From Escherichia phage rV5_ev158, in sequence record LR694611: a stretch of DNA of 64,000 nt; one strand, written 5' to 3'. Below are positions 33,595 through 59,395 of the stretch, one piece after another; position 1 is the stretch's first letter; each line of letters begins with the position of its first letter. Both the position numbers and the translations under genes were made by a program. Below the pieces are notes generated by a model. The model worked only from the letters and a program-made list of their open reading frames with translations, had not been told where the DNA came from and did not search any database.

Positions 33595-33812
33595 AGTGTT
33601 TTCCTCTCTTCTGGTTGTTGTGTGGGCACCTTTGCCCCTTCAAGATAAATGTTACCCCACCCCCTGGCAGATGTCAACGGTTTTTATAGTTCTTATATGA
33701 CAGGCAGGCCTGGTGATTGTCTCCCCCTGTTCCCAAGTGCCGCCCGTTTAATAAGAATAGCAAAAGGGGCCGAACAAGTCAACCCCAAAATCAGTACCAA
33801 AACACTTTTTAT

Positions 33813-34124
33813 TTATACGGTCCGGTCATTGGCCTTTGTCCAGGACCTGGCGATCCGTTTCCCAGTCACCTGGAACGGAGACTGCATTGTGTGTAATGAA
33901 TCCAGCGTAAGGGAGGACCGTTTACGGCGTATCTTCAGGATCGCCAATGTATTGTCCATCTCACGGCCAGGTCCTGGGCGGTATGGTGTGCCTCCAGCGT
34001 TAAGGTTGATGATCTCATGTATTGAGATCCGGCGTTGTTTTGCTTCCGCATCTTTGAAGATAGCCAGTGGAGGCGCTATGCGTTGCCGATACCAATCTAA
34101 AACGGTTGGCGTAATAGCGATCAT
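33813..34124 (-). CDS. hypothetical protein
   Basis: 103 aa; AGGGGGT 5 nt upstream of ATG; start overlaps upstream stop (ATGA). Confidence 0.45.
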   Translation of the reverse strand: MIAITPTVLDWYRQRIAPPLAIFKDAEAKQRRISIHEIINLNAGGTPYRPGPGREMDNTLAILKIRRKRSSLTLDSLHTMQSPFQVTGKRIARSWTKANDRTV

Positions 34125-34312
34125 ATTTTACCCCCTATGTAGTCCGGTCGGTTTTTCTCTGTCATGCGTTTTAGCAATTCTTGAATAATCCCTATTGCGG
34201 TTAATGTCTCATCTTCACGCTTTGAGTCAACATACCCGGGATCGTTTATAACTTTTGTCTGATTATGATATCTCAATACCGCCAACACTTTTACAGCTTC
34301 ATCAGTGGTCAT
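34121..34312 (-). CDS. hypothetical protein
   Basis: 63 aa. Confidence 0.4.
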   Translation of the reverse strand: MTTDEAVKVLAVLRYHNQTKVINDPGYVDSKREDETLTAIGIIQELLKRMTEKNRPDYIGGKI

Positions 34313-34457
34313 TATCGCACCTAAAACAATGAGTTAATATATAACACCAGATCGCTGACCACTAGAACAACACTGATCAGCACATACCTAACCATAAGGG
34401 TAAAGAGCGCCAATATTGACACCACAATCCCCAAGGTGGTGATTATCTTTTTCATGG

Positions 34458-34742
34458 TTAACGGTTCACGTAAGCTTTACCGTTTACCGTCATCGGCAAA
34501 TCTTCCAGGTCTGGATCTTCCTTAAGGTCACGAGCAAGCTCACCGCACCGGATACCCTCGAATCCGTAGTACTCTGTTGTACCGTCATTAAAAGTTTTAG
34601 TGGCAAGGCATAAGCGATAAGTAACCCCGATTCGATTGACGGCATGAATATCCGTTAGATTAACCTCTTTTGCCAGCTCATTAGCCATTGCAGGCGCATT
34701 AAGTCCAACAACCAGGGTAACCGCTGCGATCATCTTTTTCAT
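34458..34742 (-). CDS. secreted small protein (signal peptide)
   Basis: N-terminal MKKMIAAVTLVVGLNAPAMA signal-peptide-like; AAGAGGA upstream. Confidence 0.5.
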   Translation of the reverse strand: MKKMIAAVTLVVGLNAPAMANELAKEVNLTDIHAVNRIGVTYRLCLATKTFNDGTTEYYGFEGIRCGELARDLKEDPDLEDLPMTVNGKAYVNR

Positions 34743-34833
34743 TGTGTCTATCCTCTTTCTGCTACGTTTAAGGCGGCGGTAACCGCCTGTTTATGCTTTG
34801 TTGGTTAATTTTCAGGTATCTGTATAAATTAAA

Positions 34834-35049
34834 CTATGCTGTACGCTCAACTATAACAACGGTTTGGGGGATCTCCCCTTCCACCACTAGTAAGGCCTTT
34901 TTCTGCGTGATAGATATCTTTACCCGTTGCAGCGTGGCGGTGAAGTCTTTCATTTCGTCACGCGGTGTTTTAGTGCAGTACCAGATCTCAGGCTTGCCGA
35001 TCTGTAAGTTGCGTAAAAATTCTGTTTTGCCTGTTTTGTTAGTGATCAT
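34834..35049 (-). CDS. hypothetical protein
   Basis: 71 aa. Confidence 0.4.
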   Translation of the reverse strand: MITNKTGKTEFLRNLQIGKPEIWYCTKTPRDEMKDFTATLQRVKISITQKKALLVVEGEIPQTVVIVERTA

Positions 35050-35233
35050 TTGTCAACCTCACCCGATACCGTTGGAAGACAAGATCACATTAGCCATGGT
35101 TGCAATCAGGCCAATACCCAGGGCAATAACCGGGATCACAGCATCAATTAATTTTTGTTTCATGGTGTTTATTCTCTTCTGTTAGTAACCTTATTCATAG
35201 GGCCGCTGCCACGGCCCCAGGGTAAGGCGGCTA

Positions 35234-35479
35234 TTAGTGTTTCATTCCAACCATAGCGGCGCGGATCGCCGTAGTGCTGTACTTGAAGCCGTCCGGGGTC
35301 TTATCTTGTCCGGTTAGCTCCAGAAAAAGCATCATATCCCGCGCCGCATCATTACGATTAGCATTAGCGTTAATAAAGCCTTGGGCCAACCGGTACAATG
35401 ACTCATCGTTATTAATCCAAAGGCTTACATTCCAATGAGTTTTGTTTTTGTAACCGTTATAACCTTTATTGCTTTTCAT
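35234..35479 (-). CDS. hypothetical protein
   Basis: 81 aa. Confidence 0.45.
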   Translation of the reverse strand: MKSNKGYNGYKNKTHWNVSLWINNDESLYRLAQGFINANANRNDAARDMMLFLELTGQDKTPDGFKYSTTAIRAAMVGMKH

Positions 35480-35570
35480 GGTGTTTACCTCTTCTTTGTT
35501 CCGGGTGGCGGATCATTCTACCACCTTATGTATTATGCTTTGTTAGATGGTTGTTTGTTGTCAAACTATT

Positions 35571-35792
35571 TTAACGATAATCATCGTACGCTTTATTAAC
35601 CTGGCGAATATAACATTCAAAAGCTAGATCAATAGATTCATATTCACGGATATACTCACCATAGGAAACCACATACATTTCTATAGCTTCCTCATATGCG
35701 AGGAGAATAGAATCTAAGCCTACGATCTCGGTCTTTGCAATAATAGCCATGATTTTTATCCTCTTTGTGGTTGGTGGGGCTTGTTGCTCCAT
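35571..35792 (-). CDS. hypothetical protein
   Basis: 73 aa. Confidence 0.4.
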   Translation of the reverse strand: MEQQAPPTTKRIKIMAIIAKTEIVGLDSILLAYEEAIEMYVVSYGEYIREYESIDLAFECYIRQVNKAYDDYR

Positions 35793-35825
35793 TTTATTTA
35801 TATATTACAGTTTTATATGGTCATG

Positions 35826-36059
35826 TCAACTATTTTCAAAAAATTTTTCTGCTGTGATATTCTTTCCGGTAGGGTTCGCTACTTTCAAAATTCTATCATG
35901 CACCGGACGCCCGAAAGAATAAGATCCGTATACAGTAAACCAATAATCACCGTCAGGCTGTACTATTACCGCCGCATAGGGTACGCCTTTTTCGTTTTTG
36001 CTGACAAAATAGATCACATTGCCATTAATAGCCTCAGTGCGTTTAATTTGTTCCATCAT
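35826..36059 (-). CDS. hypothetical protein
   Basis: 77 aa. Confidence 0.45.
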   Translation of the reverse strand: MMEQIKRTEAINGNVIYFVSKNEKGVPYAAVIVQPDGDYWFTVYGSYSFGRPVHDRILKVANPTGKNITAEKFFENS

Positions 36060-36114
36060 GATGATTTACCTCTCTTTATTTTCATAATTGGGGGCCTTTT
36101 CGGCCCCGCCAGGT

Positions 36115-36399
36115 TTATTTATTGATAGCGTGCAGCGGGAAAGCTACGCCAGGTTGATAAATAACCTTTACAACCTCATCAGGACAAAAGAAGTTGCAGA
36201 ACTCACCGCAATAGGCCTCATCCTCTTTCAACTCTTCATCAACATACTCAAAAAAGTAGTCGATGCTTGGATAATCCTGGCCGGGATTATAGTCAACCAT
36301 CGTTAATAATAACTCTTGATCATTCCGTAGGATGTGCATACCCGCTTTTAAGTATTTTGCTTCCATTTCTACTACATCGCCAGCGGTAACAATAGCCAT
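36115..36399 (-). CDS. hypothetical protein
   Basis: 94 aa. Confidence 0.45.
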   Translation of the reverse strand: MAIVTAGDVVEMEAKYLKAGMHILRNDQELLLTMVDYNPGQDYPSIDYFFEYVDEELKEDEAYCGEFCNFFCPDEVVKVIYQPGVAFPLHAINK

Positions 36400-36526
36400 G
36401 ATTTTAACTCCTATCTATCTGGTCAACGATTGGGGGCCTCCCCCTCGACAACTCTTATTATCCATATTGTCGGGAATGATGCAAGTACTTCTTTAAAAAT
36501 TTTTTAAGCGCCCCGTATGCCGTTGT

Positions 36527-36567
36527 AACGCCAAAATAATAAAGGCCATGCAACCGCATGGCCTTTA
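36527..36567 (-). terminator. Rho-independent terminator
   Basis: 8 bp stem GGCCATGC/GCATGGCC; minus-strand transcript would have a T-rich tail after the hairpin. Confidence 0.55.
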
Positions 36568-36601
36568 TGTGATTATATTGCTGCAGGCCCTGCTAGGGGC
36601 C

Positions 36602-36952
36602 TTATTTTGCATTCTTGCCTGTATTGCCGCCACGGTACCAGCGTTTGCGGTGAAAATGGTAATAATCACCCTCGGCATTAAACATCAGATGATTTTCAAT
36701 AACCAGCTTACGAAGGTGGGCCGGATCTTGTTCCATTCTTGCCAGATTCCGGCGGCTGTTACGTAAGCGTATAAATTCCATATTCAGGCCGTTGATTGCA
36801 GCATGGATGTTAAAGTAACCACCTTTGAGACGTTCACGCATGGCGTTAAGCTCAACACAATATACAGATTTCTCACAAATCAAGGTATTAGCTAGGGCGC
36901 GGACCTGGGCAAGGGGGTTAAGCTCATTAAAGTAATATAGTTTGACTTTCAT
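36602..36952 (-). CDS. hypothetical protein
   Basis: 116 aa. Confidence 0.45.
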   Translation of the reverse strand: MKVKLYYFNELNPLAQVRALANTLICEKSVYCVELNAMRERLKGGYFNIHAAINGLNMEFIRLRNSRRNLARMEQDPAHLRKLVIENHLMFNAEGDYYHFHRKRWYRGGNTGKNAK

Positions 36953-36969
36953 AAAATCGCCTGCTGAAA

Positions 36970-37269
36970 TTAGTTTGAGAAAACATCGTTCACAATAGCG
37001 ATCACAATGCCGCCCACCTTGTCACGGTCAACAATGCACAAATCACCATAGATCATGTGGTAGTCTGGATGATCTTTCACAGAATAGTCAATAAGTGTTT
37101 TCTTGTCATCCAGCTTCGTAACTTCCATTCTCATAACGATATGAGAATCATCAAAGGCATTATTCCGAAAAGTCATAGCCTGACCGCCAGGGCACCCGGT
37201 GATCTCCACTTCCACACCATCTACGATCTGACCATCAAAGAAATAAAGATTATTAGCCTGGATAAACAT
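36970..37269 (-). CDS. hypothetical protein
   Basis: ATG 37269 with AAGGAG 8 nt upstream (listed GTG start 37278). Confidence 0.45.
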   Translation of the reverse strand: MFIQANNLYFFDGQIVDGVEVEITGCPGGQAMTFRNNAFDDSHIVMRMEVTKLDDKKTLIDYSVKDHPDYHMIYGDLCIVDRDKVGGIVIAIVNDVFSN

Positions 37270-37315
37270 GTCTATCACTCCTTGTTAACTGCGTGGTATT
37301 TTAACAGGGTTTAAA

Positions 37316-37359
37316 TTTACTTTATTGATGGCCCTGGAGTCAAGGCCATCTAAAAATAA
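37316..37359 (-). promoter_or_regulatory. conserved 44 bp promoter/operator-like element, copy 1
   Basis: TTTACTTTATTGATGGCCCTGGAGTCAAGGCCATCTAAAAATAA; on minus strand TTGACT -35 lies in the loop of palindrome GATGGCC...GGCCATC; about 47 nt upstream of the next minus-strand gene. Confidence 0.5.
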
Positions 37360-37362
37360 ATT

Positions 37363-37563
37363 TTACAGGCCTACAATCTCTTTGATTCGTTTAACCGCTG
37401 CCTCAGCGCCTTGGGGGTAAAAATTATGGTAACCAATCACGCGAGTGATACTAATCGCCGTTTGATGATCTTCATAGTCGCCCTTGAAGATTTCTTGACC
37501 GTCAATCAGCACGGCAATTTTTTCTTCTTTTTTGAAGTTAATAACGCGGATATTGTTGCTCAT
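37363..37563 (-). CDS. hypothetical protein
   Basis: 66 aa. Confidence 0.4.
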   Translation of the reverse strand: MSNNIRVINFKKEEKIAVLIDGQEIFKGDYEDHQTAISITRVIGYHNFYPQGAEAAVKRIKEIVGL

Positions 37564-37702
37564 TTTGTTTCTCCTTTCTGGTTTTTGTGGTGGTGGGGAT
37601 TAGCTCCCCGTTGATTGTTATTATCCACATTCCGGACCGGATTGCAACACCACGGAAGAAAAATTTTTTAAAAAGATAGGCCCCCATGATCGGGGGCCGT
37701 TC

Positions 37703-37822
37703 CTAGTTACTTACAGCGATAAAGTACATCCCTACGCCTAGCAATATTTCAAGGGCGATAATCTCAAGCCATACCATAACGCGGCGCACCTTATCGGTGC
37801 ATGGCTTATCCTTGGTTGTCAT
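37703..37822 (-). CDS. small membrane peptide, 39 aa
   Basis: GGAGGAAAGGGGGAG upstream of ATG; hydrophobic C-terminus; below ORF-track cutoff. Confidence 0.35.
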   Translation of the reverse strand: MTTKDKPCTDKVRRVMVWLEIIALEILLGVGMYFIAVSN

Positions 37823-37991
37823 CGTCTCCCCCTTTCCTCCGGGTAGTAGTGACGCGATCTACAATGGCCCCCAGGAGTCCTATCACGACACACACCACAA
37901 GAAAAATTATCTCCGCTGTTGTTCGATCCATTGTTATAAAATTCCTCAAGATCAGGCCTGAAAATAAAGCGTTCGTTATTGAATCCGTCAC
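37806..37991 (-). CDS. small membrane peptide
   Basis: Listed GTG start 37991; internal ATG 37931 would give a 41 aa TM peptide; translationally coupled to the 37703-37822 ORF. Confidence 0.3.
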   Translation of the reverse strand: MTDSITNALFSGLILRNFITMDRTTAEIIFLVVCVVIGLLGAIVDRVTTTRRKGGDDDNQG

Positions 37992-38041
37992 GCCAGGCGG
38001 CTGGCTTCAAATCTTCACTAAAGGGATTAATTAACGTGGCA

Positions 38042-38413
38042 TTATTTAAACGGTTGGCCCACATATTTTCTATTCCTCTCAAATAGGCGATCCGCCTCAG
38101 TTAAACATATCTCATGGGCTTGATCTCTGGTTTTAGCCTCATCAAAAACCTGTTGTGCCAGGCTGCAGCGTAGGGAGACTGGAAGATCACTATAATAGGC
38201 GTTGACAAACGTTTGAGCGTCGTACAGGTCTGAAAATACTTTACCCTTTCTATTATTCCCCTTGTCAACAATTGCAAGGATAACCAATACAATAGTTGCA
38301 ACCACCCCCAGGAAAATAGATATAATAAACCATAAAAAGGCGGATCTGCCCATCTTGCCAGCGATCCAGGCGTTAAACAAGGAAACCAATACAGCCAAAA
38401 TAATAAATTCCAT
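38042..38413 (-). CDS. membrane protein (two predicted TM segments)
   Basis: MEFIILAVLVSLFNAWIAG and FLWFIISIFLGVVATIVLVILAIV; listed start 38446. Confidence 0.45.
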   Translation of the reverse strand: MEFIILAVLVSLFNAWIAGKMGRSAFLWFIISIFLGVVATIVLVILAIVDKGNNRKGKVFSDLYDAQTFVNAYYSDLPVSLRCSLAQQVFDEAKTRDQAHEICLTEADRLFERNRKYVGQPFK

Positions 38414-38477
38414 TCTATGTACCTCTTTTGCAGTTCTGTTTAACAATAAGGCGGCAAATATGCCGCCTGTTACCTGA

Positions 38478-38858
38478 TTAAAAATTATCGCCGTAAATCT
38501 TTCCGCTTTCTGCCCATACCACCACGCGGGGCATACTATCCCACACGTCTTGTTTTAGATTGAGCGCGTGCAATTCTTCGGTGGTGCCCATACCAGGCAC
38601 GGGCTGATTGTATACTGCAAAACGACCACCTGCATAATCGTAGGCCAGAGTTAAATCACACTGGATCATCTTTTTGATCATGGCGTTGAGCATAGCGTTA
38701 GCCGCATACTGGTCACGTTTTAAAGGCAACTCTTTGATTAGTTTGCGATAGTTTTCAATGTGATCGCACACTGTTTCACGTGGAAGATCTTTCATGTCCT
38801 CGCGAAAGGTAACCAGGTTAAACATAACGGTGTCAATAGCTTTAGTAGTGTTTTTCAT
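38478..38858 (-). CDS. hypothetical protein
   Basis: 126 aa; upstream TTGCAA/TATATT promoter-like sequence and leader hairpin GGGGCAAGACGTTTGCCCC. Confidence 0.5.
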   Translation of the reverse strand: MKNTTKAIDTVMFNLVTFREDMKDLPRETVCDHIENYRKLIKELPLKRDQYAANAMLNAMIKKMIQCDLTLAYDYAGGRFAVYNQPVPGMGTTEELHALNLKQDVWDSMPRVVVWAESGKIYGDNF

Positions 38859-38947
38859 AATGTTTACCTCTTTGTTTTGTGTGGGGGCAAACGTCTTGCC
38901 CCTTGAGTTTTAATATAGCAGGTTTTTAGGTTATTGCAACACTTTAT

Positions 38948-39571
38948 TTATGAAAAAGTCATCTCGCCATATTCATCCACATCAAACCGCCAATCATTGG
39001 CCTCGATAAGGCCGATCAGGTTTTCGGTGGTGAATTGTTCAAGATAGGCTTGCTCCAGGTCTACGTAAACCTTGCGGGATAACTCCCGTACCGTCTCGGT
39101 GATCAGCTCTTCCAGCTCTTCAACTTTATCCTCTTGCTTGGTGGTCAGGTCTAGCCAATTGGTATCGATGCACCCGCCTATTGTGTTTTCGTGATGATAA
39201 TGGCTAAACGGGATACGTTCAACGCTGGCTGACAGTTCGCCATCATGCATTGTGCCGAACAAGTGTCTAATTAAGCGGAATTTTGTAAGCGCTTTAACCT
39301 TACGCAAGAATTTTTCTAAGTTTACATTTTCAGCACTAATTGATGCGCCGTCGCCTTGACACCAAAAGCCGGACCAATGTACTTCGGTATCTTCAAGGCC
39401 GTACTCTGGAAAAACATATTCTTTATAGTATTCAATTACACTTTCTGCGAAAAAATCCTCTCCGCTGTGTTCTTCTCTTTCGCGGACCATTTCAATAGCC
39501 TTTTCTTTTTGTTCGTCGGTCAGCACGTCGAAAGATAAATTGCAACCTGTGGTAATGTTAACGGTGGTCAT
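38948..39571 (-). CDS. hypothetical protein
   Basis: 207 aa; preceded by promoter and leader hairpin. Confidence 0.5.
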   Translation of the reverse strand: MTTVNITTGCNLSFDVLTDEQKEKAIEMVREREEHSGEDFFAESVIEYYKEYVFPEYGLEDTEVHWSGFWCQGDGASISAENVNLEKFLRKVKALTKFRLIRHLFGTMHDGELSASVERIPFSHYHHENTIGGCIDTNWLDLTTKQEDKVEELEELITETVRELSRKVYVDLEQAYLEQFTTENLIGLIEANDWRFDVDEYGEMTFS

Positions 39572-39628
39572 GATATTTTCTCCTGTTTTCTTTGTTAGTG
39601 GCGGGAAGTTTTCCCGCCTGTGTTTTTA

Positions 39629-39656
39629 ATTATACTTATTGAGATTTACTTGTCAA
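39629..39656 (-). promoter_or_regulatory. sigma70-like promoter TTGACA-16-TATAAT with leader hairpin
   Basis: Minus-strand -35 at 39651-39656, -10 at 39629-34; leader hairpin GGCGGGAAAACTTCCCGCC (39600-39618) before the RBS. Confidence 0.55.
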
Positions 39657-39906
39657 CACTATTTTTTAAATTATTGTGGCGCAAAATGTTTAAAATCTCC
39701 TCAACGTCATCAACACGGCGGCAATTTTTAAACGCTACCAATTGCCCCATGATTTTAATCACTGGGCGGCCTTGCCAGTGCCCCTGGAGAAAGCGCGCCT
39801 TGACTTTATCGGTGGAACTATCACGCCACCAAATGGCCTTGTTGTTGCAGTAGTAAAAATTATTCAGGACAACATCAACTTTATCAAAATTTTTTAATTT
39901 ACGCAT
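39646..39906 (-). CDS. hypothetical protein
   Basis: 86 aa. Confidence 0.45.
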   Translation of the reverse strand: MRKLKNFDKVDVVLNNFYYCNNKAIWWRDSSTDKVKARFLQGHWQGRPVIKIMGQLVAFKNCRRVDDVEEILNILRHNNLKNSVDK

Positions 39907-40110
39907 GGCGTTTACTCCTTTCTCTCTTTGATGTGGTTAGTATAGCTAACCTGTTTAAGATGTCAAGCTTTAAATAAAATCACTGTCAATGATATTTTTA
40001 ACGCCATAAAACGGCCCTAAGCGATGTTTTCAGGTTAAAGGGGGGCGATTGCATAGGTGGGGCCTTTTTGGCGCTTACAGGGCCAACCAGGGGCGCTATT
40101 CGTAGGATAG

Positions 40111-40139
40111 AAATAAAAAGCCCCGCACAATGGCGGGGC
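40111..40139 (-). terminator. Rho-independent terminator
   Basis: GCCCCGC...GCGGGGC hairpin; minus-strand T-run after it. Confidence 0.6.
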
Positions 40140-40147
40140 GTTGGTTG

Positions 40148-40369
40148 TTATTTGTCTTTATGGCGGTATCGTTCTGCCTGTCGTTCACGTTCCAAAAGTA
40201 GGCCAGGCAATTTACGATCATAATGATTTCGCCAGATCTTTCCAAATCTTTTTGGCTTATTCAGTTTATTGTTACGCTGGCGTCGTTCCGGCAGCTCTTC
40301 GGAATCATGAGATCGCTTTACAATCTTCTCAAAATTAATCTTCATATATTCCCCCCTTGCTAACTTCAA
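40148..40369 (-). CDS. hypothetical basic protein
   Basis: Arg/Lys-rich; alternative ATG start at 40345. Confidence 0.4.
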   Translation of the reverse strand: MKLARGEYMKINFEKIVKRSHDSEELPERRQRNNKLNKPKRFGKIWRNHYDRKLPGLLLERERQAERYRHKDK

Positions 40370-40706: not shown

Positions 40707-40764
40707 TGTATTGATAAACTATCTTTATAGATGGCCCTGCTACCAGGACCACCGAAAAAACAGT

Positions 40765-41097: not shown

Positions 41098-41099
41098 TC

Positions 41100-43130: not shown

Positions 43131-43673
43131 TTTTGTACCTCCTCTTCAATTGTTACCTATCCTATAGCATAGGCCCACCAGGTTTGCAAGCCTTCATTCT
43201 CTCCTACCTGGTCAGTTAGGCCCTGCCAGGCTGGCCCCGCCAGGTTGCAGCGGTCAGCGCATCAGGTTAGAATTTTTTTTTTTGAAAAGTGTTGACAGCG
43301 GCCCCGCCAGGTGGCAAAATATACCTATCGAAAGGACGGCAGGCACCGGTGACGGGGGAGACAACCACCGGGGATGGGCGCTGCATGAAATGAGAACGAT
43401 TATCATTATCGTCTAAAAATTTATGCAAAAACTTCTTGCTTTCTTTGTCCTGTGTGTTACTATAATAACAAGCCGGGGCAGTAGGGGCCGGGAGACAATC
43501 ACCGGGCCTGCCCGTTATTCTGCAAACGAGAATGATTATCATTCAAAATTCTAAATGAGAACTCCTCGCATTTAATAAATTTAATTAGCACGCTAATTAC
43601 CCTACGTAACAATTTCCTATAAAATAGTATCCACTAAAATATTCCCATATAGAAATTTTAAAAATCCATTTCT

Positions 43674-43836
43674 GAAAACGAAAAATCGATTTCGTCCCCA
43701 AAAATTTCAGGTCGAGAGCCGGAACGATTTCCGGAAAATCCGATTCAGAAAACGAAAAACAGATCGAGTACTGAGAAATTTATCGAGAAAAATTTTCAGA
43801 AAATTCAATCTTTGAAACGAAAAACAGATCGAGTAC
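43674..43836. repeat. direct repeats GAAAACGAAAAACAGATCGAGTAC (two near-exact copies plus one degenerate)
   Basis: Copies start near 43674 (degenerate), 43747 and 43813; period about 66-73 bp; no convincing ORF. Confidence 0.55.
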
Positions 43837-44147
43837 TTGGAAAGCTGCGCCACAACTTCAAGGTAGTGGTTGGATTATTACTATAAAAGGTCAAGGGTAA
43901 GTGGGGGAAGTTCTAGTAGAAGGGTGTGAGCATGTGCGGGAAATCTGTAATGGTGGTCTGGAATATGGTGCAGACGATAGGATGAGTGGTTCATCTCGTC
44001 GTGCCTGCTCTGAAAAATCCATTTTAGTTTTCGATCCATTTTCTGATTTTCTAAGGATTTTAAAATATCCTGGTAGGTAAAATATCAAAAGGAGGAAATC
44101 CATTTTAGAAATCCTCCTGATCTCTGGCAACCTGATAACTTAAAATA

Positions 44148-44480
44148 TCAGGCTCCCAGTGTGTTCTTTCCTTTATACAACCGTAAGGGTATAGTTTTTG
44201 TAACAGTCCATCTCCCCAGCCCTTCCCAGTTCCAGTTGTAGGCATGGTACCCGGTTACGCATGCACTGCTGGAGTGATCATAGGCATAAGAGAACGCTAT
44301 ACGCACCAAATGAAACCAGTCTTTCCACGGTTGTGGTCCGTAAGCTTTTCTCCAACACCGACACAAGCTAAATGTCTCAAGAATAGGCAGGATAACAAAT
44401 CCATACACCGCCACCAGAATAGCCAACGCAATGATTGTCAGGAATACATACCCTGCAGTTGAAACGATGATCTCTGTCAT
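44148..44480 (-). CDS. membrane protein
   Basis: N-terminal TM VFLTIIALAILVAVYGFVILPIL. Confidence 0.5.
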   Translation of the reverse strand: MTEIIVSTAGYVFLTIIALAILVAVYGFVILPILETFSLCRCWRKAYGPQPWKDWFHLVRIAFSYAYDHSSSACVTGYHAYNWNWEGLGRWTVTKTIPLRLYKGKNTLGA

Positions 44481-51282: not shown

Positions 51283-51285
51283 GTA

Positions 51286-51617: not shown

Positions 51618-52016
51618 TCAATGGCTATTTTCAATCAGCCACACAGGGTCTAGGTAGATTTGTTGACGTCTTGCCCAATGACAAACTTCATTATACATCT
51701 GAATCTCTTTGTCTGTCAATTCACGAATAGGCTCATCTATACCCTCATTTTTGTGGTAATCCCATTCTGCGTCTATCTCCCACAGCCATGACTTGTTGTC
51801 ACCACGCTTACGCACACAGAAGTCACCAGGGCGGCCTGCCAATGCATTTAAGAACTCGTTCTCCGCTCGCTCCTGGAGAATACTAAGGAGCAAAACGTTG
51901 GAACATGACCGTAAAATATGCTTCAGCTCGCAGTCATCGATCTCAACTTCGATACGTTGTTTGACTGTGTGAGTACCTTTTACTAACATTCTACCTCCTC
52001 TAAACAAACTCTGCAA
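51618..52016 (-). CDS. hypothetical protein
   Basis: 132 aa; contains the recurrent GGCAGGCC..GGTGA motif in coding sequence. Confidence 0.45.
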   Translation of the reverse strand: MQSLFRGGRMLVKGTHTVKQRIEVEIDDCELKHILRSCSNVLLLSILQERAENEFLNALAGRPGDFCVRKRGDNKSWLWEIDAEWDYHKNEGIDEPIRELTDKEIQMYNEVCHWARRQQIYLDPVWLIENSH

Positions 52017-52194: not shown

Positions 52195-52418
52195 AGGTCC
52201 TCTTCAACAGCTACAAACTTGGCAAGCAGGGTGGTTCCGTAGATATGATACTCACCGTTTGCCAGATGGGAGATAAACCAGGCAATCCCTTCCTCGTCTT
52301 TAATCATCTTGTTTGCACGAGCTTTATCGTAATAAACCTCGTAGGTCTTTCCTTCTTTAAAGAATGACAGGTCTGTCATCTTTTCTTCTACAAAGGTAGC
52401 TTTAACCAAAGTCGTCAT
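52191..52418 (-). CDS. small protein, paralogous trio member
   Basis: DEEGIAWFISHLANGEYHIYG block. Confidence 0.4.
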   Translation of the reverse strand: MTTLVKATFVEEKMTDLSFFKEGKTYEVYYDKARANKMIKDEEGIAWFISHLANGEYHIYGTTLLAKFVAVEEDL

Positions 52419-52822
52419 TGATCAGTCTCCTTCTTGTTAAGTCTGAATACTGCAATAATAGCATTCCCAAGGTGCAGTGTCAAATCATTTCCAAGATACC
52501 ACAGCATTCCACGGTCATCTTTGATGAAAGGGTAGCAATTTGGTGCCTTCTCTTTAATGAAAGGGTGACAATCTGGTGCCTTCCAGACATTGTACACTTT
52601 CCCAACCTGAAAGAAATCAGGCCCTGTTGGGATTTTAGTGCCTGGCCACACTTGAGATACCTGAACACACTCCACCTGCATAATAACAGGGATAGTCATG
52701 GATGTAAATGTTTTTGTTGGTTCTACTACCATAAAAGTCTCCTCTTTGCTCAACAACACTTCCATGTGTTGATAGTTTACATTAGTGACAATCACCCCAA
52801 TTACGACCACACAGGTATTCAC
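52415..52822 (-). CDS. small protein, paralogous trio member, with internal 11 aa tandem duplication
   Basis: APDCHPFIKEK/APNCYPFIKDD from a 33 bp tandem repeat at 52519-52582; DDRGMLWYLGNDLTLHLGN block. Confidence 0.45.
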   Translation of the reverse strand: MNTCVVVIGVIVTNVNYQHMEVLLSKEETFMVVEPTKTFTSMTIPVIMQVECVQVSQVWPGTKIPTGPDFFQVGKVYNVWKAPDCHPFIKEKAPNCYPFIKDDRGMLWYLGNDLTLHLGNAIIAVFRLNKKETDQ

Positions 52823-55559
52823 CTGTGATCTGGAACGGGACGCCCATCATTTTAGAAGCTTGCCAGAAGCAATGCACCACCATTTCACCCACAGGGCTCC
52901 AGATAAGTTCAAGCTTTCCGTCATCGTTCAGGATAGGATCGTACACCGTGTTTCCGTCTCTGTCAACCACTTCGTTTCCGTCCTCATCCTTGCGTGCCTT
53001 TTTGTACTTATGACCGTCGAACACATGAAGTTTGGCCTCCTGCTCTGCCTTAAATGCTTCCAGTTCTTCGATTGTGTCGAAGGTGTACACAGTCTTATAC
53101 TTCGGTGTGTCAGGGACTTGAAGCTGATATTCGTCATGGTAATAGATAATACGACGAACACCTTCATCGTACCACCCACGCTTCACCATTTGATGGTGCA
53201 TGAGTATCCCAACTAAGTCACACAACGATGCGCCGCCATTTTGTTGGTATGCATTAAGTAAAGAGTGTTTAGATCGGGTCCAGATAGCATGACCATCAAA
53301 AGAGTAGATAAACTTCTTACCCGTTGCTTCCCAGAATTTCTCCAGATCTTCTTTACGCCCCTTAAGACCAGGGTTGGCATCCCAGAGTGCATCGATTACC
53401 CTTTGTCCCAACTCTGGAGAGATGTCCAGCATATCTGCAACTTTATCTTTTTGTGCCCCATACATAACCCCATACGTGATAGGTTTACCGTCGTTACGAG
53501 ACACCTCTCTACCTGCTACTTTTGTATATGCCTCAGCATTGTTTTGGTGTGCGTCCCCGTTACTTACAACATCGTAATACAGGCCGTTGTCGAACTCAAA
53601 GGCACCCCAAGCCCCGATAAGCTGCTCTAAGTTGGACCCGTCAATACCGATCTCAAAGTATCCTGGAGGAACACCCCACAGACTACGCATCTCTTTACCC
53701 ATAACCACTTTAGGAGATGGTTTAGGCATGTTTGCACAAATACTGTGTTTCTGTCGGGAAGTGTTTGTTAATCCAGAACTTTTAGCAGGAAGCTTATGGT
53801 CAATCTTCAAACGTGGGTGATTAAGAAGACCAGTATCAACCTTATCCTCCTTGATTGGATCAAGGACCGATCTGCGGTTTCGCAATGATAACCACAAGAC
53901 GATATCTTTAGCCATCTCTCCGTTCAATTTTTCAAGATTCGGGCATAGGTGTCCAAACGTATCTTTCAGTTGCGGAGAAGTAATAAGTGCCCTAGCTTTT
54001 CTACGTATTTTCCCGAATACTTCCTTTTTAATCCTTTCGGAGTTAGGAAAGCTTCGGAACTTGTGCACGGTTGTCTGGAACTTAGCATCAGTTTTGTTCC
54101 AGAAGTTGATAATTAGGTCACAATACTCTGACTCTAAAAGCTCGTCCATATATGCATACACTCGTGCATCAACATCTGCATCAGGTAGAGCTTTCTTCTT
54201 GCTGTCTTTAGTTACATCCTTAGTTCTCCACATTGTCGGAAGCCAACCAGCACTGATCAGGTATCGCTTAATATCGTCCTGATTACTGATTTTCATAGGT
54301 ATCTTGCAGTCAGGCATTCGCTTCTGCTGTAGATCACTTATTGCCTGATCCATTAGCTCTTTAGGTAAAGGTTGTGGTGTGGAGGTGCCCTTGATATAGC
54401 CCCTCAAGAAATCCGCCATCTTATCAGGGTCTTTACAGCCCATCTCTTCACACCATTTTATCCCCATCTTACTGACATCTCCTGTGGAGGTAAATGCTCG
54501 CTTAGGAGGAGCTTTGAATTCTAAAGCACTCATGTCCACAGGGTAGCCAAGCTTGTCTTTTAACCATTTCCAACCATTATTGGAGATTGTCCCATCCTGG
54601 TTAAACGGCTTTTCAGGGAACTTAGGCCGCTGAGACATTGATAACTCTTTTAAAGGAAGTTGTGGTTCAACACGATCAGCGATCTCTTTCATCCACGCAT
54701 CGCAGCGGTCACGTAAAGCAATAGCCCCATCTATGTCGAAATACACACCCTGTCGAGCCTGCAGCTCCATCAGGAAATGCTGCAGCATGCCTCGGCGTAA
54801 TGCATTCTTCCAGGTAATCTTCTTGAATCCTTTAGGCTTCTCTTTGGCAGGGTCATACATAAAGTTCTGCATGTCAGATTTGCCGTAGAATACACCTTTT
54901 GATTCCGCTACCAACTCTTTCCAGAGCAACTCCTGGATGATAACGTCCTCGAACACACGATCCACATATTTCCACAGCGGAAGATCGCGCCAGTCATCAA
55001 TTTGAACTTTCTGGTTACCAAGGGCGTAGCCCCATGCCATAAGGCCGTGAGGACCAACAGGTTGCATTTTCTTAGTAACCGGGTTGAATACAGCGTCCGG
55101 ACAACCTTTTGGTAAAGGGCGATCAGGCCACAAGATTCGGCTCATAGCCAACGTATCAAACAGGTTAACCTGGTGGTCGTTGATAGTCCCCATGCATTTA
55201 GGATCACGGAACATATCAAAATGAATACCGGATAATCTTTCCATTAGCATAAAGTCATAACTGTAGCAGTTATGGCAGTTCAAAGCTGTTGGTGACCAGT
55301 CAGAATTGCCTGTAAGCCAACCTTCCAACTCCGAAAAATCTGCTATGCGAACTTCAAAATCTTTATAAAGAGTTTTCTTTGCCAGAATGAAGTTCTTAGC
55401 CTTTTCTATATCCTCCTCGGAGTAGTGTGTGCGGTCATTTAGAGGAAGGAACAGCATAAAACGGTTCTTATTCAGCTCTTTAAACAGACCGCAGTGATAA
55501 TAAAGATCTGGGTCTTCCAGCAAACCGGATGACTCAAAATCGAAAGACCACATACTCAT
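52782..55559 (-). CDS. family A DNA polymerase with 3'-5' exonuclease domain
   Basis: 925 aa; N-terminal FDFESSG (exo I DxE); PolA-like motif B KPITYGVMYGAQ and motif C YYHDEYQ. Confidence 0.8.
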   Translation of the reverse strand: MSMWSFDFESSGLLEDPDLYYHCGLFKELNKNRFMLFLPLNDRTHYSEEDIEKAKNFILAKKTLYKDFEVRIADFSELEGWLTGNSDWSPTALNCHNCYSYDFMLMERLSGIHFDMFRDPKCMGTINDHQVNLFDTLAMSRILWPDRPLPKGCPDAVFNPVTKKMQPVGPHGLMAWGYALGNQKVQIDDWRDLPLWKYVDRVFEDVIIQELLWKELVAESKGVFYGKSDMQNFMYDPAKEKPKGFKKITWKNALRRGMLQHFLMELQARQGVYFDIDGAIALRDRCDAWMKEIADRVEPQLPLKELSMSQRPKFPEKPFNQDGTISNNGWKWLKDKLGYPVDMSALEFKAPPKRAFTSTGDVSKMGIKWCEEMGCKDPDKMADFLRGYIKGTSTPQPLPKELMDQAISDLQQKRMPDCKIPMKISNQDDIKRYLISAGWLPTMWRTKDVTKDSKKKALPDADVDARVYAYMDELLESEYCDLIINFWNKTDAKFQTTVHKFRSFPNSERIKKEVFGKIRRKARALITSPQLKDTFGHLCPNLEKLNGEMAKDIVLWLSLRNRRSVLDPIKEDKVDTGLLNHPRLKIDHKLPAKSSGLTNTSRQKHSICANMPKPSPKVVMGKEMRSLWGVPPGYFEIGIDGSNLEQLIGAWGAFEFDNGLYYDVVSNGDAHQNNAEAYTKVAGREVSRNDGKPITYGVMYGAQKDKVADMLDISPELGQRVIDALWDANPGLKGRKEDLEKFWEATGKKFIYSFDGHAIWTRSKHSLLNAYQQNGGASLCDLVGILMHHQMVKRGWYDEGVRRIIYYHDEYQLQVPDTPKYKTVYTFDTIEELEAFKAEQEAKLHVFDGHKYKKARKDEDGNEVVDRDGNTVYDPILNDDGKLELIWSPVGEMVVHCFWQASKMMGVPFQITGEYLCGRNWGDCH

Positions 55560-55617
55560 ATACAGTTCTCCTTAAAGGGGAGGCGGTTGTACTACCCCTC
55601 CCACTCTTTGTTAAACA

Positions 55618-57696
55618 TTAAAAAGGCGTTTCATCATCCTCAAAACCAGGGACCGGGTCAGAGGATGGATCATCGTACTGGAGGTCTTCCTGCGTGTCAA
55701 CAGGCTTAACAGTAGGAGTTACAACCTTATCAGCCACAACCTTGCCCATAGGTGTTTCTACAACTGCATGCTCCTGATCCTCAAACATAGCCTGAGGTCT
55801 CCAAACAACCTCCCCACCTTCTCCGTCTGTAAACATTTGCATTTCTTTGTCCCAGTACCAATTACTGGCATCATGGAACTTACCTGTGTGCGGGTCCATA
55901 ACCAAAGTGTCAGCAATACCTAGAGTTTTTGCTGGACGGTTTTTAAGACCTACCAGACGGACACGTCCACGAGAACGATCCACCATTTCTTCGGCCTCGA
56001 CACCTATGACTACCCAACTCAACTGTTCAAGCCCCGCCGATCCTCGCAAATTCTCTTTTCGCACAGGATACCAGAAAGGTAACGGGTTACCATCCTTGTC
56101 CTTAGGAGGCACAATCTCTGTACGTTTGAGGTGAGCGATCACCAAGATAAACACGTTAAACTGCTTACAAAACGCAGCCAGCTGAGTCATAGCCATGTCC
56201 AGTTCTTTTCGCTCATCCTTAACATTAAGCCCTGAAATTACCATGGACAGGTGATCCAGCACAATATAACGGCAATGGTACAGGCAAACCATTTGCTTAA
56301 GCTTGGTAATCAACTCGTCCACCGGAATAGATCCGAAATGTTTGAACACTTTGATTTTTCCAGCTTTTGCCCATGATTGGTGAATCTCTGCGTGTTCTTG
56401 ATCAGTTAAAAACTGGCTAGGATCTTCAACAAACTCTTTAACATCAAACCCTAACTGGTTTGCATACAAGGAGTTAATTGCTTCCTCTGGGTCCTCCTCA
56501 AGATGGATCATACATAGACGATCATCCTCTTCATAGTCATCAGCCTTCGGGCATGTCGGGTCCATTAGGTATCTTGCAATACAATGTTCCAGTTTTTTAG
56601 CTACAGTTGTTTTACCGCCCCCTGATGGCCCTGTAAGCATTACGAGTGTCCCTTTGTGCAAGCCTTTTAGCATTTTTTGCAGTTTTGGGAACTCTGCGCT
56701 GATATCTACCCCGTTGGAAGTCTTTTTCCGCAAAGACTCGATAGAGAAGTCTTCTAAATCCGACACAGCATCAGGCACATATTTAACAGGGTGCCGGAAC
56801 ATGTTGACAATATCTTCCAGCTTTTTAGCCTTCAGCATGTCACGGATATCTTTTACCCCGTCAGGGTCATTTACTTCACCAGGGTATTCTACGTGGTAAA
56901 CGTTATCAGCCATCAAAAATGCTGCGATATTGTGCGTGGCCTCAACACCTTTAATGACGTGTTTTTGCTTCTCTACCTCGTTAGCTGCATCGTTATCCAT
57001 TGCCAGCACAACTGTTCCATAGCTACGGATAAACTTCTCATTGTTTGCAAAAGTATCTACTGCGTTTGCACATCCACAGTTAATTCCAACAAAAGGCAGG
57101 CAGGGTTTTCCTGCCAGATCACCACCGTTGATAACTGCGTCGATCCCGTCCTGGACCTCTTTAGCCCACTGCTTCACCTTTGCCGGGGCTTTAGCGTTGG
57201 TGAGAATCCCTTTTACTTGTATCTGATATGCAGCCTGCCATGCTGCAATAACATCACCTTCTCCCTCACAAACGTTAATCTGCTTACGGTTGTTGGAAGA
57301 TGCACACAGCTTTTGACCAAACATCTGGGAGTTGGCCTTTACGATGCCAACAACGGAGAAGTGGCCCCTTTGTTCTTTAGGAATAGTCCAGTCACGCTTT
57401 TTGAAACCGGACAGATTTCCGTAGCGGTCGTAATATGGGAAATATGTTGCAGTGACTGTCACACCGTCTTCTTGTGACAATGCTGATCGCACACCAAAAT
57501 ATTGTGCAGCCATCAGACCGATATTTTGTTGTGGGACAGGGACAATTTTAGTATTTTCTAAAACAGTCTCTACAGTTTCAACTTCTTTTTCATCACGATA
57601 GTCTCGTTTCACACTTCCCCCACTTTTATACTTAGTTGCTTTCGGGTTTGGCTCACCGAAACGGTTGTATGCAGATGCCATAAATTTACTTCCCAT
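55618..57696 (-). CDS. primase-helicase (TOPRIM primase plus DnaB/gp4-like helicase)
   Basis: 692 aa; TOPRIM-like VVLAMDNDAAN; Walker A LTGPSGGGKTT; Walker B-like IVLDHLSMV. Confidence 0.75.
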   Translation of the reverse strand: MGSKFMASAYNRFGEPNPKATKYKSGGSVKRDYRDEKEVETVETVLENTKIVPVPQQNIGLMAAQYFGVRSALSQEDGVTVTATYFPYYDRYGNLSGFKKRDWTIPKEQRGHFSVVGIVKANSQMFGQKLCASSNNRKQINVCEGEGDVIAAWQAAYQIQVKGILTNAKAPAKVKQWAKEVQDGIDAVINGGDLAGKPCLPFVGINCGCANAVDTFANNEKFIRSYGTVVLAMDNDAANEVEKQKHVIKGVEATHNIAAFLMADNVYHVEYPGEVNDPDGVKDIRDMLKAKKLEDIVNMFRHPVKYVPDAVSDLEDFSIESLRKKTSNGVDISAEFPKLQKMLKGLHKGTLVMLTGPSGGGKTTVAKKLEHCIARYLMDPTCPKADDYEEDDRLCMIHLEEDPEEAINSLYANQLGFDVKEFVEDPSQFLTDQEHAEIHQSWAKAGKIKVFKHFGSIPVDELITKLKQMVCLYHCRYIVLDHLSMVISGLNVKDERKELDMAMTQLAAFCKQFNVFILVIAHLKRTEIVPPKDKDGNPLPFWYPVRKENLRGSAGLEQLSWVVIGVEAEEMVDRSRGRVRLVGLKNRPAKTLGIADTLVMDPHTGKFHDASNWYWDKEMQMFTDGEGGEVVWRPQAMFEDQEHAVVETPMGKVVADKVVTPTVKPVDTQEDLQYDDPSSDPVPGFEDDETPF

Positions 57697-58480
57697 TAAT
57701 TCTGCTCCTTACTACAGGCTCGTTTGCTAGGAATACGGCTTTTGCCCAGCCACGTGGTGTGAGGCTTCGGATCATCTTCGTTCTTGCACTCTTTCCACCC
57801 AGCTTGGCGTGTTGCATGGAATACCCGCTAACCGCGTCAACTATTTGCGGGACAGGTTTTGTGGCCGGGATTATAAATCCATTACCTATCCAGCCGCAAG
57901 TTATTTTTGGATAGGCATCACGTGGAGCTATAAATTCAGGAAACCAGGGGTTTACATCATCCTCCGGTAAATACCCGCCATAGTCAGAAGGGTGAAAACG
58001 GTAATCAGGTTTGCGCCACAGTGTGGACATAACACCCACAGGATTCTCTACATGCCACGGGCAATCGTAAATCTCTCCCAACTCTTCTGCAACCCGAGCA
58101 TCCTTTACAGCATTAATCTGGATCAGCGGGTCCTTAGCCAGCTTCTTCTTAAAGTGTGCAGCACCTGACACCGCTAAGTGGGTGCACGGAGGAAATGCAA
58201 GAACAAAGTCCGGAGCTGGGTACATGCAGAAAGTTTCCTGAGGGAACCATGGATCAATCCAATAATCTACATAGTGAATATTTGGATGATCGGTGATCAC
58301 CTCTGCATAACTGCCGTGGTCAGCACCTTCTGCGTTAAAGCACAGGCACAGATATCCAGCTTTTGCCCAGTCAATGACTGCACCGCCAGATCCGTCAAAT
58401 AGACTCCACACAACACCTTTGTGGTAGTGTTCTTTATAGATAAATTTCAATTTGCTGTCTCCTAATGCAAAAAGCCCCAC
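57686..58480 (-). CDS. C5-cytosine methyltransferase-like protein (short)
   Basis: LFDGSGG (motif I FxGxG), AFPPC (motif IV PC) and HVENPVG (motif VI ENV) in C5-MTase order; only 264 aa. Confidence 0.45.
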   Translation of the reverse strand: MGLFALGDSKLKFIYKEHYHKGVVWSLFDGSGGAVIDWAKAGYLCLCFNAEGADHGSYAEVITDHPNIHYVDYWIDPWFPQETFCMYPAPDFVLAFPPCTHLAVSGAAHFKKKLAKDPLIQINAVKDARVAEELGEIYDCPWHVENPVGVMSTLWRKPDYRFHPSDYGGYLPEDDVNPWFPEFIAPRDAYPKITCGWIGNGFIIPATKPVPQIVDAVSGYSMQHAKLGGKSARTKMIRSLTPRGWAKAVFLANEPVVRSRINGK

Positions 58481-58495
58481 CCTTTCGGGCAGGGC
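58468..58495 (-). terminator. Rho-independent terminator (repeated element, copy 2)
   Basis: Identical GCCCCACCCTTTCGGGCAGGGC hairpin. Confidence 0.55.
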
Positions 58496-58501
58496 CTAGT
58501 G

Positions 58502-58984
58502 TTAAACCCGGATACCTATTGTATACTCGGTGGATACCAATGTCAAATCTAAATTTAAAATTTCTTGCATCTCATAGTATGCATCCAGGGTGAGATACAT
58601 TTCCCCATCCTTTTCTACATACTTGTCCAAGTGCTTGAGGCATTTCGGATAACTATCAAGGGCAGCCTTTAGGCACTCAAACTCTGTGCTGTTGATGAGT
58701 CCTTCCATCTTGGCTACCCGTTCTGGGGTAACGATAGCACTGTAGTGAGATTTAGCTTCCTGGATGCAATGGGTCCAAGCATCAACTTTCTCTTCGAAAA
58801 GTCCGAAGAACTTCTTTTTGGTGAGCTTCAGATTCTTTAAGTGCTTAAGCACTCGGTTACCGATCACAGCCACATCACGAAACTTAAGGATCACTTTGTC
58901 GATATCCTCGCGGCCTATTTTCACAAAGCAAGCCTCACACATTTCAGGAGCTGCGTAACCTACTTTCCACATAAAATCTGACAT
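58502..58984 (-). CDS. hypothetical protein
   Basis: 160 aa. Confidence 0.5.
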   Translation of the reverse strand: MSDFMWKVGYAAPEMCEACFVKIGREDIDKVILKFRDVAVIGNRVLKHLKNLKLTKKKFFGLFEEKVDAWTHCIQEAKSHYSAIVTPERVAKMEGLINSTEFECLKAALDSYPKCLKHLDKYVEKDGEMYLTLDAYYEMQEILNLDLTLVSTEYTIGIRV

Positions 58985-58996
58985 AACACTATCCCC

Positions 58997-59395
58997 TTAT
59001 TCTTCCTGAAAAGCAACGATATCATATGAACTTGCAGACGATCCTGGTGAAGAATGACTCCAGTCTAGGTCATCAGAGTAGTCAGCGTACTGTGCACCAC
59101 TACGTAGTTTATATTTTACCCACTTACCTGGTGCAGGGTTTTCACCACCTTCCCATACTTCCCAGCCTTCTGGCAGGCCGTCCTGGGGATAGTCATCCAC
59201 CTCACTAATAATCTTAGGGTTTGGCACCAAGATCCCTGCAGGCTCTTCCTTCCGGATAAGTGTCCACACAACGTAGGTGTCTGAGCAGGCGCATGATAGC
59301 AAAGTATATCCACTATTCAGAACTTCTGCAAGCTCTTTTTCAGCATCTTCCAATTTGGTTAAGTGGTATTGGATAACCTTCACACCTGTAATCAT
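58997..59395 (-). CDS. hypothetical protein
   Basis: 132 aa. Confidence 0.5.
   Translation of the reverse strand: MITGVKVIQYHLTKLEDAEKELAEVLNSGYTLLSCACSDTYVVWTLIRKEEPAGILVPNPKIISEVDDYPQDGLPEGWEVWEGGENPAPGKWVKYKLRSGAQYADYSDDLDWSHSSPGSSASSYDIVAFQEE

Follow-up and report, generated by a model that had tools for sequence, protein, structure and literature searches.

A conserved 13-nucleotide box marks predicted promoter leaders in rV5-like phages and recurs in PeSL-like cassettes of uncultured phages

Three intergenic copies of a 13-nt box

Here we describe a 13-nucleotide (nt) box, GGTGrTTGTCTCC (GGAGACAAyCACC on the other strand), that occurs three times in a 64,000-nt window of Escherichia phage rV5_ev158 (LR694611), the whole stretch of DNA that was analysed. 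The minus strand of the window carries genes from ~32 kb to 64 kb, and the rV5 gene products include several DNA methyltransferases, a T7-like DNA polymerase and a primase-helicase. Copy 1 lies between two minus-strand genes, within an extended conserved block at 33703-33726, while copies 2 and 3 lie in a ~1-kb stretch of the early minus-strand block, 43131-44148, without credible genes (Table 1). Copies 2 and 3 are direct repeats 134 base pairs (bp) apart, copy 1 is inverted relative to both, and copies 1 and 3 have the 23-mer GGCAGGCCnGGTGATTGTCTCCC in common.

Table 1. Coordinates of the box copies, predicted promoters and neighbouring features in the window
Feature	Position	Strand	Sequence and remarks
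Box copy 1	33712-33724	-	reads GGAGACAATCACC; ~+24..+36 of predicted Pc1 transcript
Box copy 2	43357-43369	+	reads GGAGACAACCACC; ~+31..+43 of predicted Pc2 transcript
Box copy 3	43491-43503	+	reads GGAGACAATCACC; ~+22..+34 of predicted Pc3 transcript
Pc1, predicted sigma70-type promoter	33754-33782	-	TTGACT-17-TATTCT with TG; predicted start ~33747
Intrinsic terminator of upstream gene	33766-33786	-	GGGGTTGACTTGTTCGGCCCC then TTTTGCTATT; stem-loop part of cassette
P168, published promoter	33649-33677	-	TTGACA-17-TAACAT; 35 nt downstream of box 1
Pc2, predicted sigma70-type promoter	43292-43320	+	TTGACA-17-CAAAAT with TG; predicted start ~43327
Pc3, predicted sigma70-type promoter	43436-43466	+	TTGCTT-16-TACTAT over perfect TATAAT; predicted start ~43470-43473
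P1, predicted promoter, facing Pc3	43517-43546	-	TTGAAT-18-CAGAAT; Fur-box-like palindrome overlaps
Fur-box-like palindrome	43392-43410		GAGAACGATTATCATTATC; 16/19 to consensus GATAATGATAATCATTATC; between boxes 2 and 3
Three iteron-like direct repeats, ~57 nt	43648-43843		spacing 74 and 65 bp
Coding look-alike	51823-51840	-	GGCAGGCCGCCCTGGTGA; box absent, shares only GGCAGGCC
Coding look-alike	59172-59189	+	GGCAGGCCGTCCTGGGGA; box absent, shares only GGCAGGCC

Genome-wide counts were run on the 138,171-bp record of Escherichia phage rV5_ev168 (Vequintavirus; LR694610.1), to which two 1-kb probes around the sites were 100% identical; between 33 and 44 kb, adding 74125 to a window position gives the record position. 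The core GGTG[AG]TTGTCTCC occurs exactly three times in 138 kb, on the plus strand at copy 1 and on the minus strand at copies 2 and 3, and not once in 60 third-order Markov genomes. A profile built from ~20 copies recovered the same three sites (genome-wide E = 1e-14, 7e-12 and 1e-5) and no fourth or diverged copy in the genome, the next match having E = 0.8. We are confident that this recurrence at three intergenic sites is real and that the box is not a restriction or methylation motif. When LR694610.1 and the window are compared at a single offset they show 23,035 mismatches, from window position 1 on; the source genome of the window, or its coordinates, therefore differs from this record somewhere upstream of ~33 kb.

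A preliminary description of the window, which had noticed the repeated peptide GRPGD in translations of open reading frames (ORFs), reported five copies of a longer pattern, GGCAGGCC(N3-4)GGTGA, in intergenic and coding DNA alike. Taken literally, the pattern has no match in the window; relaxed to GGCAGGC-N1-5-GGTGA it matches only at 33703 (+), 43338 (+) and 43499-43512 (-), with 0.01 expected. The three intergenic copies stand, but the two coding sites are chance look-alikes without the box, true copies are confined to intergenic DNA, and the peptide was a translation of non-coding sequence. Likewise, the excess over random expectation holds for the core (three copies against none) but not for GGCAGGCC, which by itself occurs a chance number of times, six genome-wide (3.0 +/- 1.8 expected, with six or more in 5 of 60 third-order Markov simulations). 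GGCAGGCC, one half of the pattern, is a less conserved flank: its GGCAGG reads GCACCC in many relatives, orthologues have GCACCCC in its place, and only GCA is invariant. At copy 2 a 6-bp dyad, CCGGTG...CACCGG, is indeed present, but the GGTGA matched there is non-homologous, being part of the palindrome CACCGGTG; the true homologue of the core occupies the opposite strand and runs in the same direction as copy 3, contrary to the orientation first assigned. The two coding look-alikes agree with one another at 16/18 positions (GGCAGGCCGyCCTGGkGA) and lie on opposite strands in unrelated genes, a likeness that we judge to be coincidence.

Conservation of the box among cultured phages

Copy 3 is the copy kept across phage subfamilies, and its region was matched in 250 cultured-phage records. 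Divergent copy-3 loci were fetched and aligned (~20 orthologues), covering Vequintavirus, Certrevirus (phiTE, CR3-like, KaOmega, PcCB7V), Seunavirus (SSE121, EC152), Mydovirus (BIS47, AV124) and Phapecoctavirus (phAPEC8, ukendt), together with Serratia phage Kashira, W70 and Aeromonas phage PhAER-3. The invariant columns across the alignment are GCA-N5-GGTG-n-TT, followed nearly always by GT, and the box is near-invariant throughout while its flanks diverge. Its variants are GGTGTTTGTCTC[CG], GGTGTTTTGTACTCC in Mydovirus and EC152, and GGTGATTGCTTCG in W70. That the box has stayed invariant between copy-3 flanks of ~70% identity indicates that it is itself under purifying selection.

A BLAST search with the box only returned 136 cultured-phage records, most Vequintavirus genomes matching in three places each and Certrevirus genomes in one. 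In bacterial genomes the 17-mer gave 48 scattered matches in unrelated taxa, where ~70 were estimated by chance, and none in enterobacteria; a host chromosomal site or regulon was rejected on these grounds. No description of the box element was found in the papers searched.

Predicted promoters and cassette layout

In every aligned lineage a predicted sigma70-type promoter lies upstream of the box read as GGAGACAAyCACC. Almost every copy has, on the GGAGACAA strand, a -35 hexamer TTGnnn (TTGACT, TTGCTT, TTGACA, TTGCAA, TTGACC, TTGATC, TTGCCA or TTGACG), a spacer of 16-18 nt and a -10 hexamer TAnnnT or CAnAAT, whose end is 22-29 nt from the box (36 nt in the copy-2 family); the box itself is usually followed by N4-CTGC. 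On the opposite strand the same AT-rich hexamer could be a -10, with the box centred at -41 and no conserved -35.

The minus-strand order at copy 1 is gene stop, terminator, Pc1, box, P168, Shine-Dalgarno (SD) sequence and gene, the last starting at 33594, 119 nt past the box. The -35 of Pc1 sits in the loop of the upstream terminator, which is also marked as a terminator in the annotation of phage Murica. Pc2 and Pc3 are antisense to the neighbouring genes and point, on the plus strand, into the ORF-free region; no clear terminator was found upstream of either, and the -35 hexamer TTGnnn of Pc3 is kept in all orthologues. The rV5 genome paper lists 33 host-type promoters (its Table S4), among them P168 beside copy 1; the box motif, Pc1 and the promoters at copies 2 and 3 are not on that list. 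The box is present at only 3 of at least 36 rV5 promoters. We infer that Pc1, Pc2 and Pc3 fire.

Two further sequence features accompany these promoters. A GC-rich motif, CCTGGyGGGGCC / CCAGGkGG, recurs in or beside promoter spacers (window 43160-43320 and 33649-33677): in P168, in Pc2, in a TTGCAA-17-TATAGG promoter at ~43187-43160 (-), with two further occurrences at ~43250 and ~43315; in related contigs (L020, L123) the motif also follows the box. Just upstream of Pc2 is an 11-T homopolymer (plus strand, 43270-43281), which is shorter or interrupted in related contigs and may be length-variable.

The ORF-free region around copies 2 and 3

The region into which Pc2 and Pc3 point contains three iteron-like direct repeats, and the Pectobacterium phage phiTE has a GGGTCTCGATC iteron array at the same position (locus L126, 900-1400). 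A published skew analysis of rV5 did not locate an origin, and 43131-44148 may be the replication origin that it could not find. Recurring AAATCCATTT units are also seen within this stretch, as are two short annotated coding sequences, 43267-43386 (-) of 39 amino acids and 43934-44080 (+) of 48 amino acids. The former overlaps box 2 and Pc2 and has no SD sequence, and both are probably annotation artefacts.

The Fur-box-like palindrome between boxes 2 and 3 is the best match to the Fur consensus in the whole window. Two further sites of 14/19, at 43528-43546 and 43522-43540, overlap P1, and 3 of the 6 window sites with at least 14/19 fall in the copy-2/3 locus (1.3 expected from shuffles). The predicted start of P1 coincides with the invariant GCA and, on the minus strand, precedes the box by 6 nt; the arrangement TTGAAT-18-CAGAAT is also present in SSE121, img148k and PcCB7V. 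Arrays of Fur-like boxes (TGAGAATCGTTCTCA, TGATAATCATTCTCA) are kept at the copy-3 locus across phage genera. These sites hint that a virulent phage might read the iron status of its host.

Cassettes in uncultured phages

A scan of IMG/VR for the core followed by N20-24 and TAnnnT returned 79 loci, nearly all of them chance matches inside genes (~45 came from one conserved gene). IMG/VR scans also yielded a 46.8-kb contig with four box copies, to which no cultured phage is related by BLAST. A metagenome scan for TATAAT-N19-25-GGAGACAAWCACCGGGG gave 17 loci, from the 46.8-kb contig, related contigs of 17-44 kb, a 215-kb contig and rV5-like contigs. We extracted ~45 distinct cassettes in total, with several to at least 12 per contig in the 42-47 kb and 215 kb contigs. 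Ga0255090_1000022, Ga0255088_1000120, Ga0228700_1000372 and ERZ650304.5-NODE-5 are among the contigs rich in cassettes.

The consensus cassette begins with a terminator hairpin, AAAAAGGCTTC-N4-GAAGCCTTTTTT, followed by CATTTATAAT, ~22 nt, GGAGACAAWCACC, N4-7, CCTG(C), and a T-run with GTAAC-rich sequence. The -10 of the uncultured-phage cassettes is a perfect TATAAT, in many cases extended, and is so solely on the GGAGACAA strand; the orientation of the box relative to the promoter is identical in all ~45 cassettes, whatever their direction in the genome. Among the 37 cassettes with enough downstream sequence, an ORF with an SD sequence follows at +105..+185 (typically ~140) in 20 and a terminator at +34..+122 in five; the latter would be short stand-alone units, and rV5 copy 1, with its gene at +119, belongs to the former class. 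A cassette of the 215-kb contig, GGAGACAATCACCgtccctgcccgatatattc, matches rV5 copy 3, GGAGACAATCACCgggcctgcccgttattc, at 26/31 positions.

The 22 nt between the -10 and the box exist in unrelated versions, each able to form a small hairpin 5' of the box (stems CCUG/CGGG, CACCG/CGGUG, CACUA/UAGUG, CGG/CCG and CCG/CGG); with a mean z of -1.28, the reality of this hairpin is suggestive only. No convincing protein common to rV5 and ~130 kb of cassette-phage sequence was found, only marginal matches; the flanking genes all fall in PHROGs of unknown function, and an attempt to classify the cassette contigs gave no assignment. One contig (L268, ERZ650304.5-NODE-5, ~1249-1320) has two facing cassettes with boxes 45 nt apart and a shared hairpin, GCATCCTATAATTTATAGGATGC, which would give two convergent short transcripts.

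The cassettes recall the PeSLs (promoter-early stem-loops) of T4-type phages, in which a terminator stem-loop lies just upstream of a sigma70-like early promoter and is followed by an SD sequence and a gene (PMC2839356, PMC4122927); PeSLs are repeated in plastic regions and have been implicated in modular shuffling (Arbiol et al. 2010, PMC2839356; Comeau et al. 2014, PMC4122927). Both rV5 copy 1 and the uncultured-phage cassettes have the terminator stem-loop and the sigma70-like promoter, an SD sequence and small gene follow in copy 1 and in 20 of the 37 cassettes, and PeSLs and box cassettes alike are repeated at intergenic spots of ORFan-rich early regions and shared or shuffled between genomes. 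In contrast, a conserved leader box is not mentioned in the description of PeSLs, whereas the 13-nt box (with N4-CTGC) is the most conserved part of the box cassettes, which often have a second promoter between box and gene. Furthermore, rV5 is not a T4-type phage and has three copies only, as opposed to the many dispersed PeSL copies of hyperplastic regions, and its copies 2 and 3 face an ORF-free iteron region instead of a gene. The box cassette is of PeSL-like type and has in addition a conserved leader box, which is a cis-regulatory signal not described before; we regard it as firmly established that the box marks a promoter-leader cassette conserved and shared among phages.

Searches for known RNA families

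Rfam gave no match in the window at the gathering threshold, and at a permissive E <= 10 nothing touched the box copies; in phiTE, phAPEC8, Kashira and the 46.8 kb contig nothing came near threshold. A search for tRNA and tmRNA genes returned none. As a phiTE match is annotated 'terminator', a pseudo-ToxI or type III antitoxin was considered and rejected: by comparison with a ToxI sequence, and with ~36-nt tandem repeats as the criterion, no ToxI-like match was found at or near the box, in phiTE or in the window.

Discussion

Tentatively, and while granting it somewhat less than an even chance, we favour the reading that the box is a transcribed leader signal read by some factor after initiation. 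The three copies would be the signature box of a small promoter-leader cassette with a host sigma70-type promoter, so that the transcript from Pc1, Pc2 or Pc3 would carry GGAGACAAyCACC ~22-43 nt from its predicted start. Reading would be tied to a single orientation of the box and would take place on nascent RNA or on the exposed non-template strand, and a sequence-specific factor at the box would set the fate of the transcript or of the elongation complex, candidate outcomes being processivity or antitermination, stability, and coordinated shut-off. It would accordingly be neither a promoter element nor a site of DNA modification. Copy 1 represents the full cassette, and copies 2 and 3 would act in tandem, antisense, into the iteron-bearing ORF-free region, with copy 3 also facing a promoter predicted to be under the control of a Fur box. 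We infer an action after initiation because the orientation of the box is strictly tied to transcription in all cassettes, because the box invariably follows the start, at a distance that varies somewhat, because the cassette regularly leads into a gene or a terminator, and because no phage DNA-binding protein was found in common with the cassette phages. Strict conservation of a linear box implies recognition by some sequence-specific factor; to this extent the protein recognition site proposed in the preliminary description is borne out, although the factor may be a protein that reads the DNA or one that reads the RNA or the non-template strand.

Lambda-type nut sites and ops elements are leader signals that load elongation or antitermination factors. 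As is generally known of them, they are short, orientation-dependent and placed tens of nt past early promoters, few promoters having one, and the box resembles them in each respect; the cassette phages also have, next to the linear conserved box, a small hairpin whose loop is GNRA-like, a further likeness. However, the box has no similarity to boxA (CGCUCUUA), boxB or ops (GGCGGTAGnnTG), and the hairpin is unsupported in the rV5 copies. Inspection of the box leaders revealed neither boxA nor boxB, the location in the leader being compatible with nut, and no N-, Q- or RfaH-like factor was identified, although no search for an N-like protein was made.

Several observations weigh against a leader signal. 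All promoters at the boxes are predictions. The fixed orientation could be inherited, since promoter and box are duplicated together; a DNA operator would account equally well for an asymmetric linear 13-mer at +22..+43; and the extra 10-11 bp of copy 2 keep helical phase, which hints at geometry at the DNA level. With the box at so few of its promoters, rV5 does not use it as a general early-mRNA signal. Nor does the box belong to a conserved fold. The flanks are self-complementary by eye (ATAGCGGG/CCCGCTAT in phiTE, ATGACAGG/CCCGTCAT in Kashira), and the RNAalifold consensus has 4 bp at -2.2 kcal/mol. A manual 8-bp stem is 78% paired as against 77% in column shuffles, with covariation of 0.118 as against 0.114; on neither strand is the box unpaired more than in controls with shuffled flanks (0.58 vs 0.55, p = 0.39); and single-copy folds are no stabler than shuffles (z -1.7 to +0.1). 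The 5' hairpin of the uncultured phages has z ~0 in the rV5 copies and is absent (positive z) in phAPEC8 and SSE121. With no covariation, excess stability or excess accessibility, a conserved hairpin presenting the box was rejected, and in the absence of a supported fold the element is best regarded as conserved in its linear sequence.

The main rival, which we consider somewhat unlikely, is a DNA operator, in which a phage or host protein binds the double-stranded box at +22..+43 and represses a few promoters that form a small regulon. Linear, asymmetric conservation without a supported fold speaks for such a site, as do the constrained distance from -10 to box (22-29 nt), the shift of copy 2 by about one helical turn and the presence of the box at a subset of promoters only. 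The C1 operators of phage P1 are comparable as asymmetric sites of ~13-17 bp present at a few promoters spread over a large phage genome; they are reportedly dispersed, overlap promoters and occur in either orientation, whereas the box invariably follows the start and keeps a single orientation. That orientation follows transcription strictly in ~45 cassettes counts against an operator, the site has neither dyad nor direct-repeat symmetry, and no DNA-binding protein common to rV5 and the cassette phages was found in the ~130 kb sampled. Furthermore, as the centre of the box lies at ~+28 to +37, past the usual polymerase footprint, repression would need a roadblock.

A more elaborate and rather unlikely version of the leader signal goes further. 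The box might be a portable leader 'address tag' that loads an elongation or RNA-fate factor on selected early transcripts, as ops and nut sites do, carried by PeSL-like cassettes that move between unrelated gamma-proteobacterial phages; in rV5-like phages it would have been co-opted, along with Fur-controlled convergent transcription, to transcribe the origin-like iteron region.

Tandem promoters are found at the primary origin of T7, and Pc2 and Pc3 might similarly be origin promoters, the box marking where the transcript is processed or handed over to a T7-like replisome as primer or R-loop. Copies 2 and 3 and all copy-3 orthologues point into the ORF-free region with its iteron-like repeats, rV5 has a T7-like DNA polymerase and primase-helicase, and the published skew analysis did not place an origin. 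We nevertheless hold this to be improbable: copy 1 and most cassettes of other phages precede ordinary small genes and not iterons, the GTC needed by a T7-type primase is lost in the Mydovirus variant GGTGTTTTGTACTCC, and the G-richness of the flank is not conserved.

There is likewise only a small chance that the box is passenger homology, that is, the best-kept part of a mobile PeSL-like cassette, similar between genomes through recombination and cassette exchange among co-infecting phages and devoid of a sequence-specific function of its own. The architecture matches PeSLs, proposed mediators of modular shuffling; some phages have dozens of cassettes, shared between unrelated genomes; and the match of the 215 kb-contig cassette to rV5 copy 3 extends beyond the promoter. 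Within the rV5 lineage, however, the copy-3 locus is orthologous and vertically inherited across subfamilies, and elsewhere the segment between -10 and box has been swapped for unrelated sequences with the box retained.

An upstream activator site, with the box read as GGTGrTTGTCTCC and centred at ~-41, a class II activator position, we rate as very improbable. The distance from box to hexamer (21-23 nt, 33 nt in copy 2) keeps helical phase, and in Certrevirus and Mydovirus the GGTG strand has a perfect TATAAT with a poor -35. In the uncultured phages, however, the hexamer is a perfect extended -10 on the other strand only and a poor one on the GGTG strand, the conserved -35 is likewise on that strand only, and transcripts would start right at terminators or run antisense into genes. 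A short restriction- or methylation-type protein recognition motif scattered over coding and non-coding DNA, as first proposed, is practically untenable despite the several methyltransferases of rV5, because genome-wide counts already contradict it: an asymmetric unit of 13-17 nt has only three true copies in 138 kb, all intergenic and promoter-proximal, whereas neither coding site has the conserved box and the number of GGCAGGCC matches is that of chance. By inspection we also consider unlikely a promoter for a single-subunit RNA polymerase (the GGGAGAC start is T7-like, but -17..-1 is hypervariable), a sigma-dependent pause (the A and C variants no longer have GACAAT), a T7-type primase site (Mydovirus has lost GTC) and a role as a small ORF or SD sequence (a start codon is missing).

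Returning to the leader signal, rV5-like phages are broad-host-range coliphages of therapeutic interest whose regulation is almost unknown, and the box defines a small, deeply conserved set of special promoters in them. Two of these, with Fur-like boxes alongside, point into the only large iteron-bearing non-coding region, and the box loci are concrete sites at which to study early regulation, a possible link to host iron, and replication initiation. Unrelated uncultured phages have dozens of cassettes of which the box is again the most conserved part; this suggests that the leader signal, not described before, is widespread, and the box cassettes extend the PeSL concept beyond T4-type phages.

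Other non-coding segments

The window contains a second gene-poor stretch, 29876-32434, in which 2.5 kb between the convergent plus and minus blocks are devoid of annotated genes; this stretch probably corresponds to what the rV5 paper shows as a 'non-coding' box. Its repeats are confined to a few short direct ones, such as GCCATGCCATTCGTTTGCAT twice (31480, 31754) and CTmCCCCTGCCCCGCCGG twice (30571, 30719). In Certrevirus and Mydovirus, a GC-rich, highly conserved non-coding segment of ~150 nt, absent from rV5, adjoins the promoter-box module (L126 1600-1740 in phiTE, L132 740-850 in BIS47, and L041). An example reads CCGGCGATyCACCTTCCGACCTGGCCC...GGTACGTTAGCCCCGCCTTT-CGCCGTGGGGTGGCG, and the segment could be a structured RNA.

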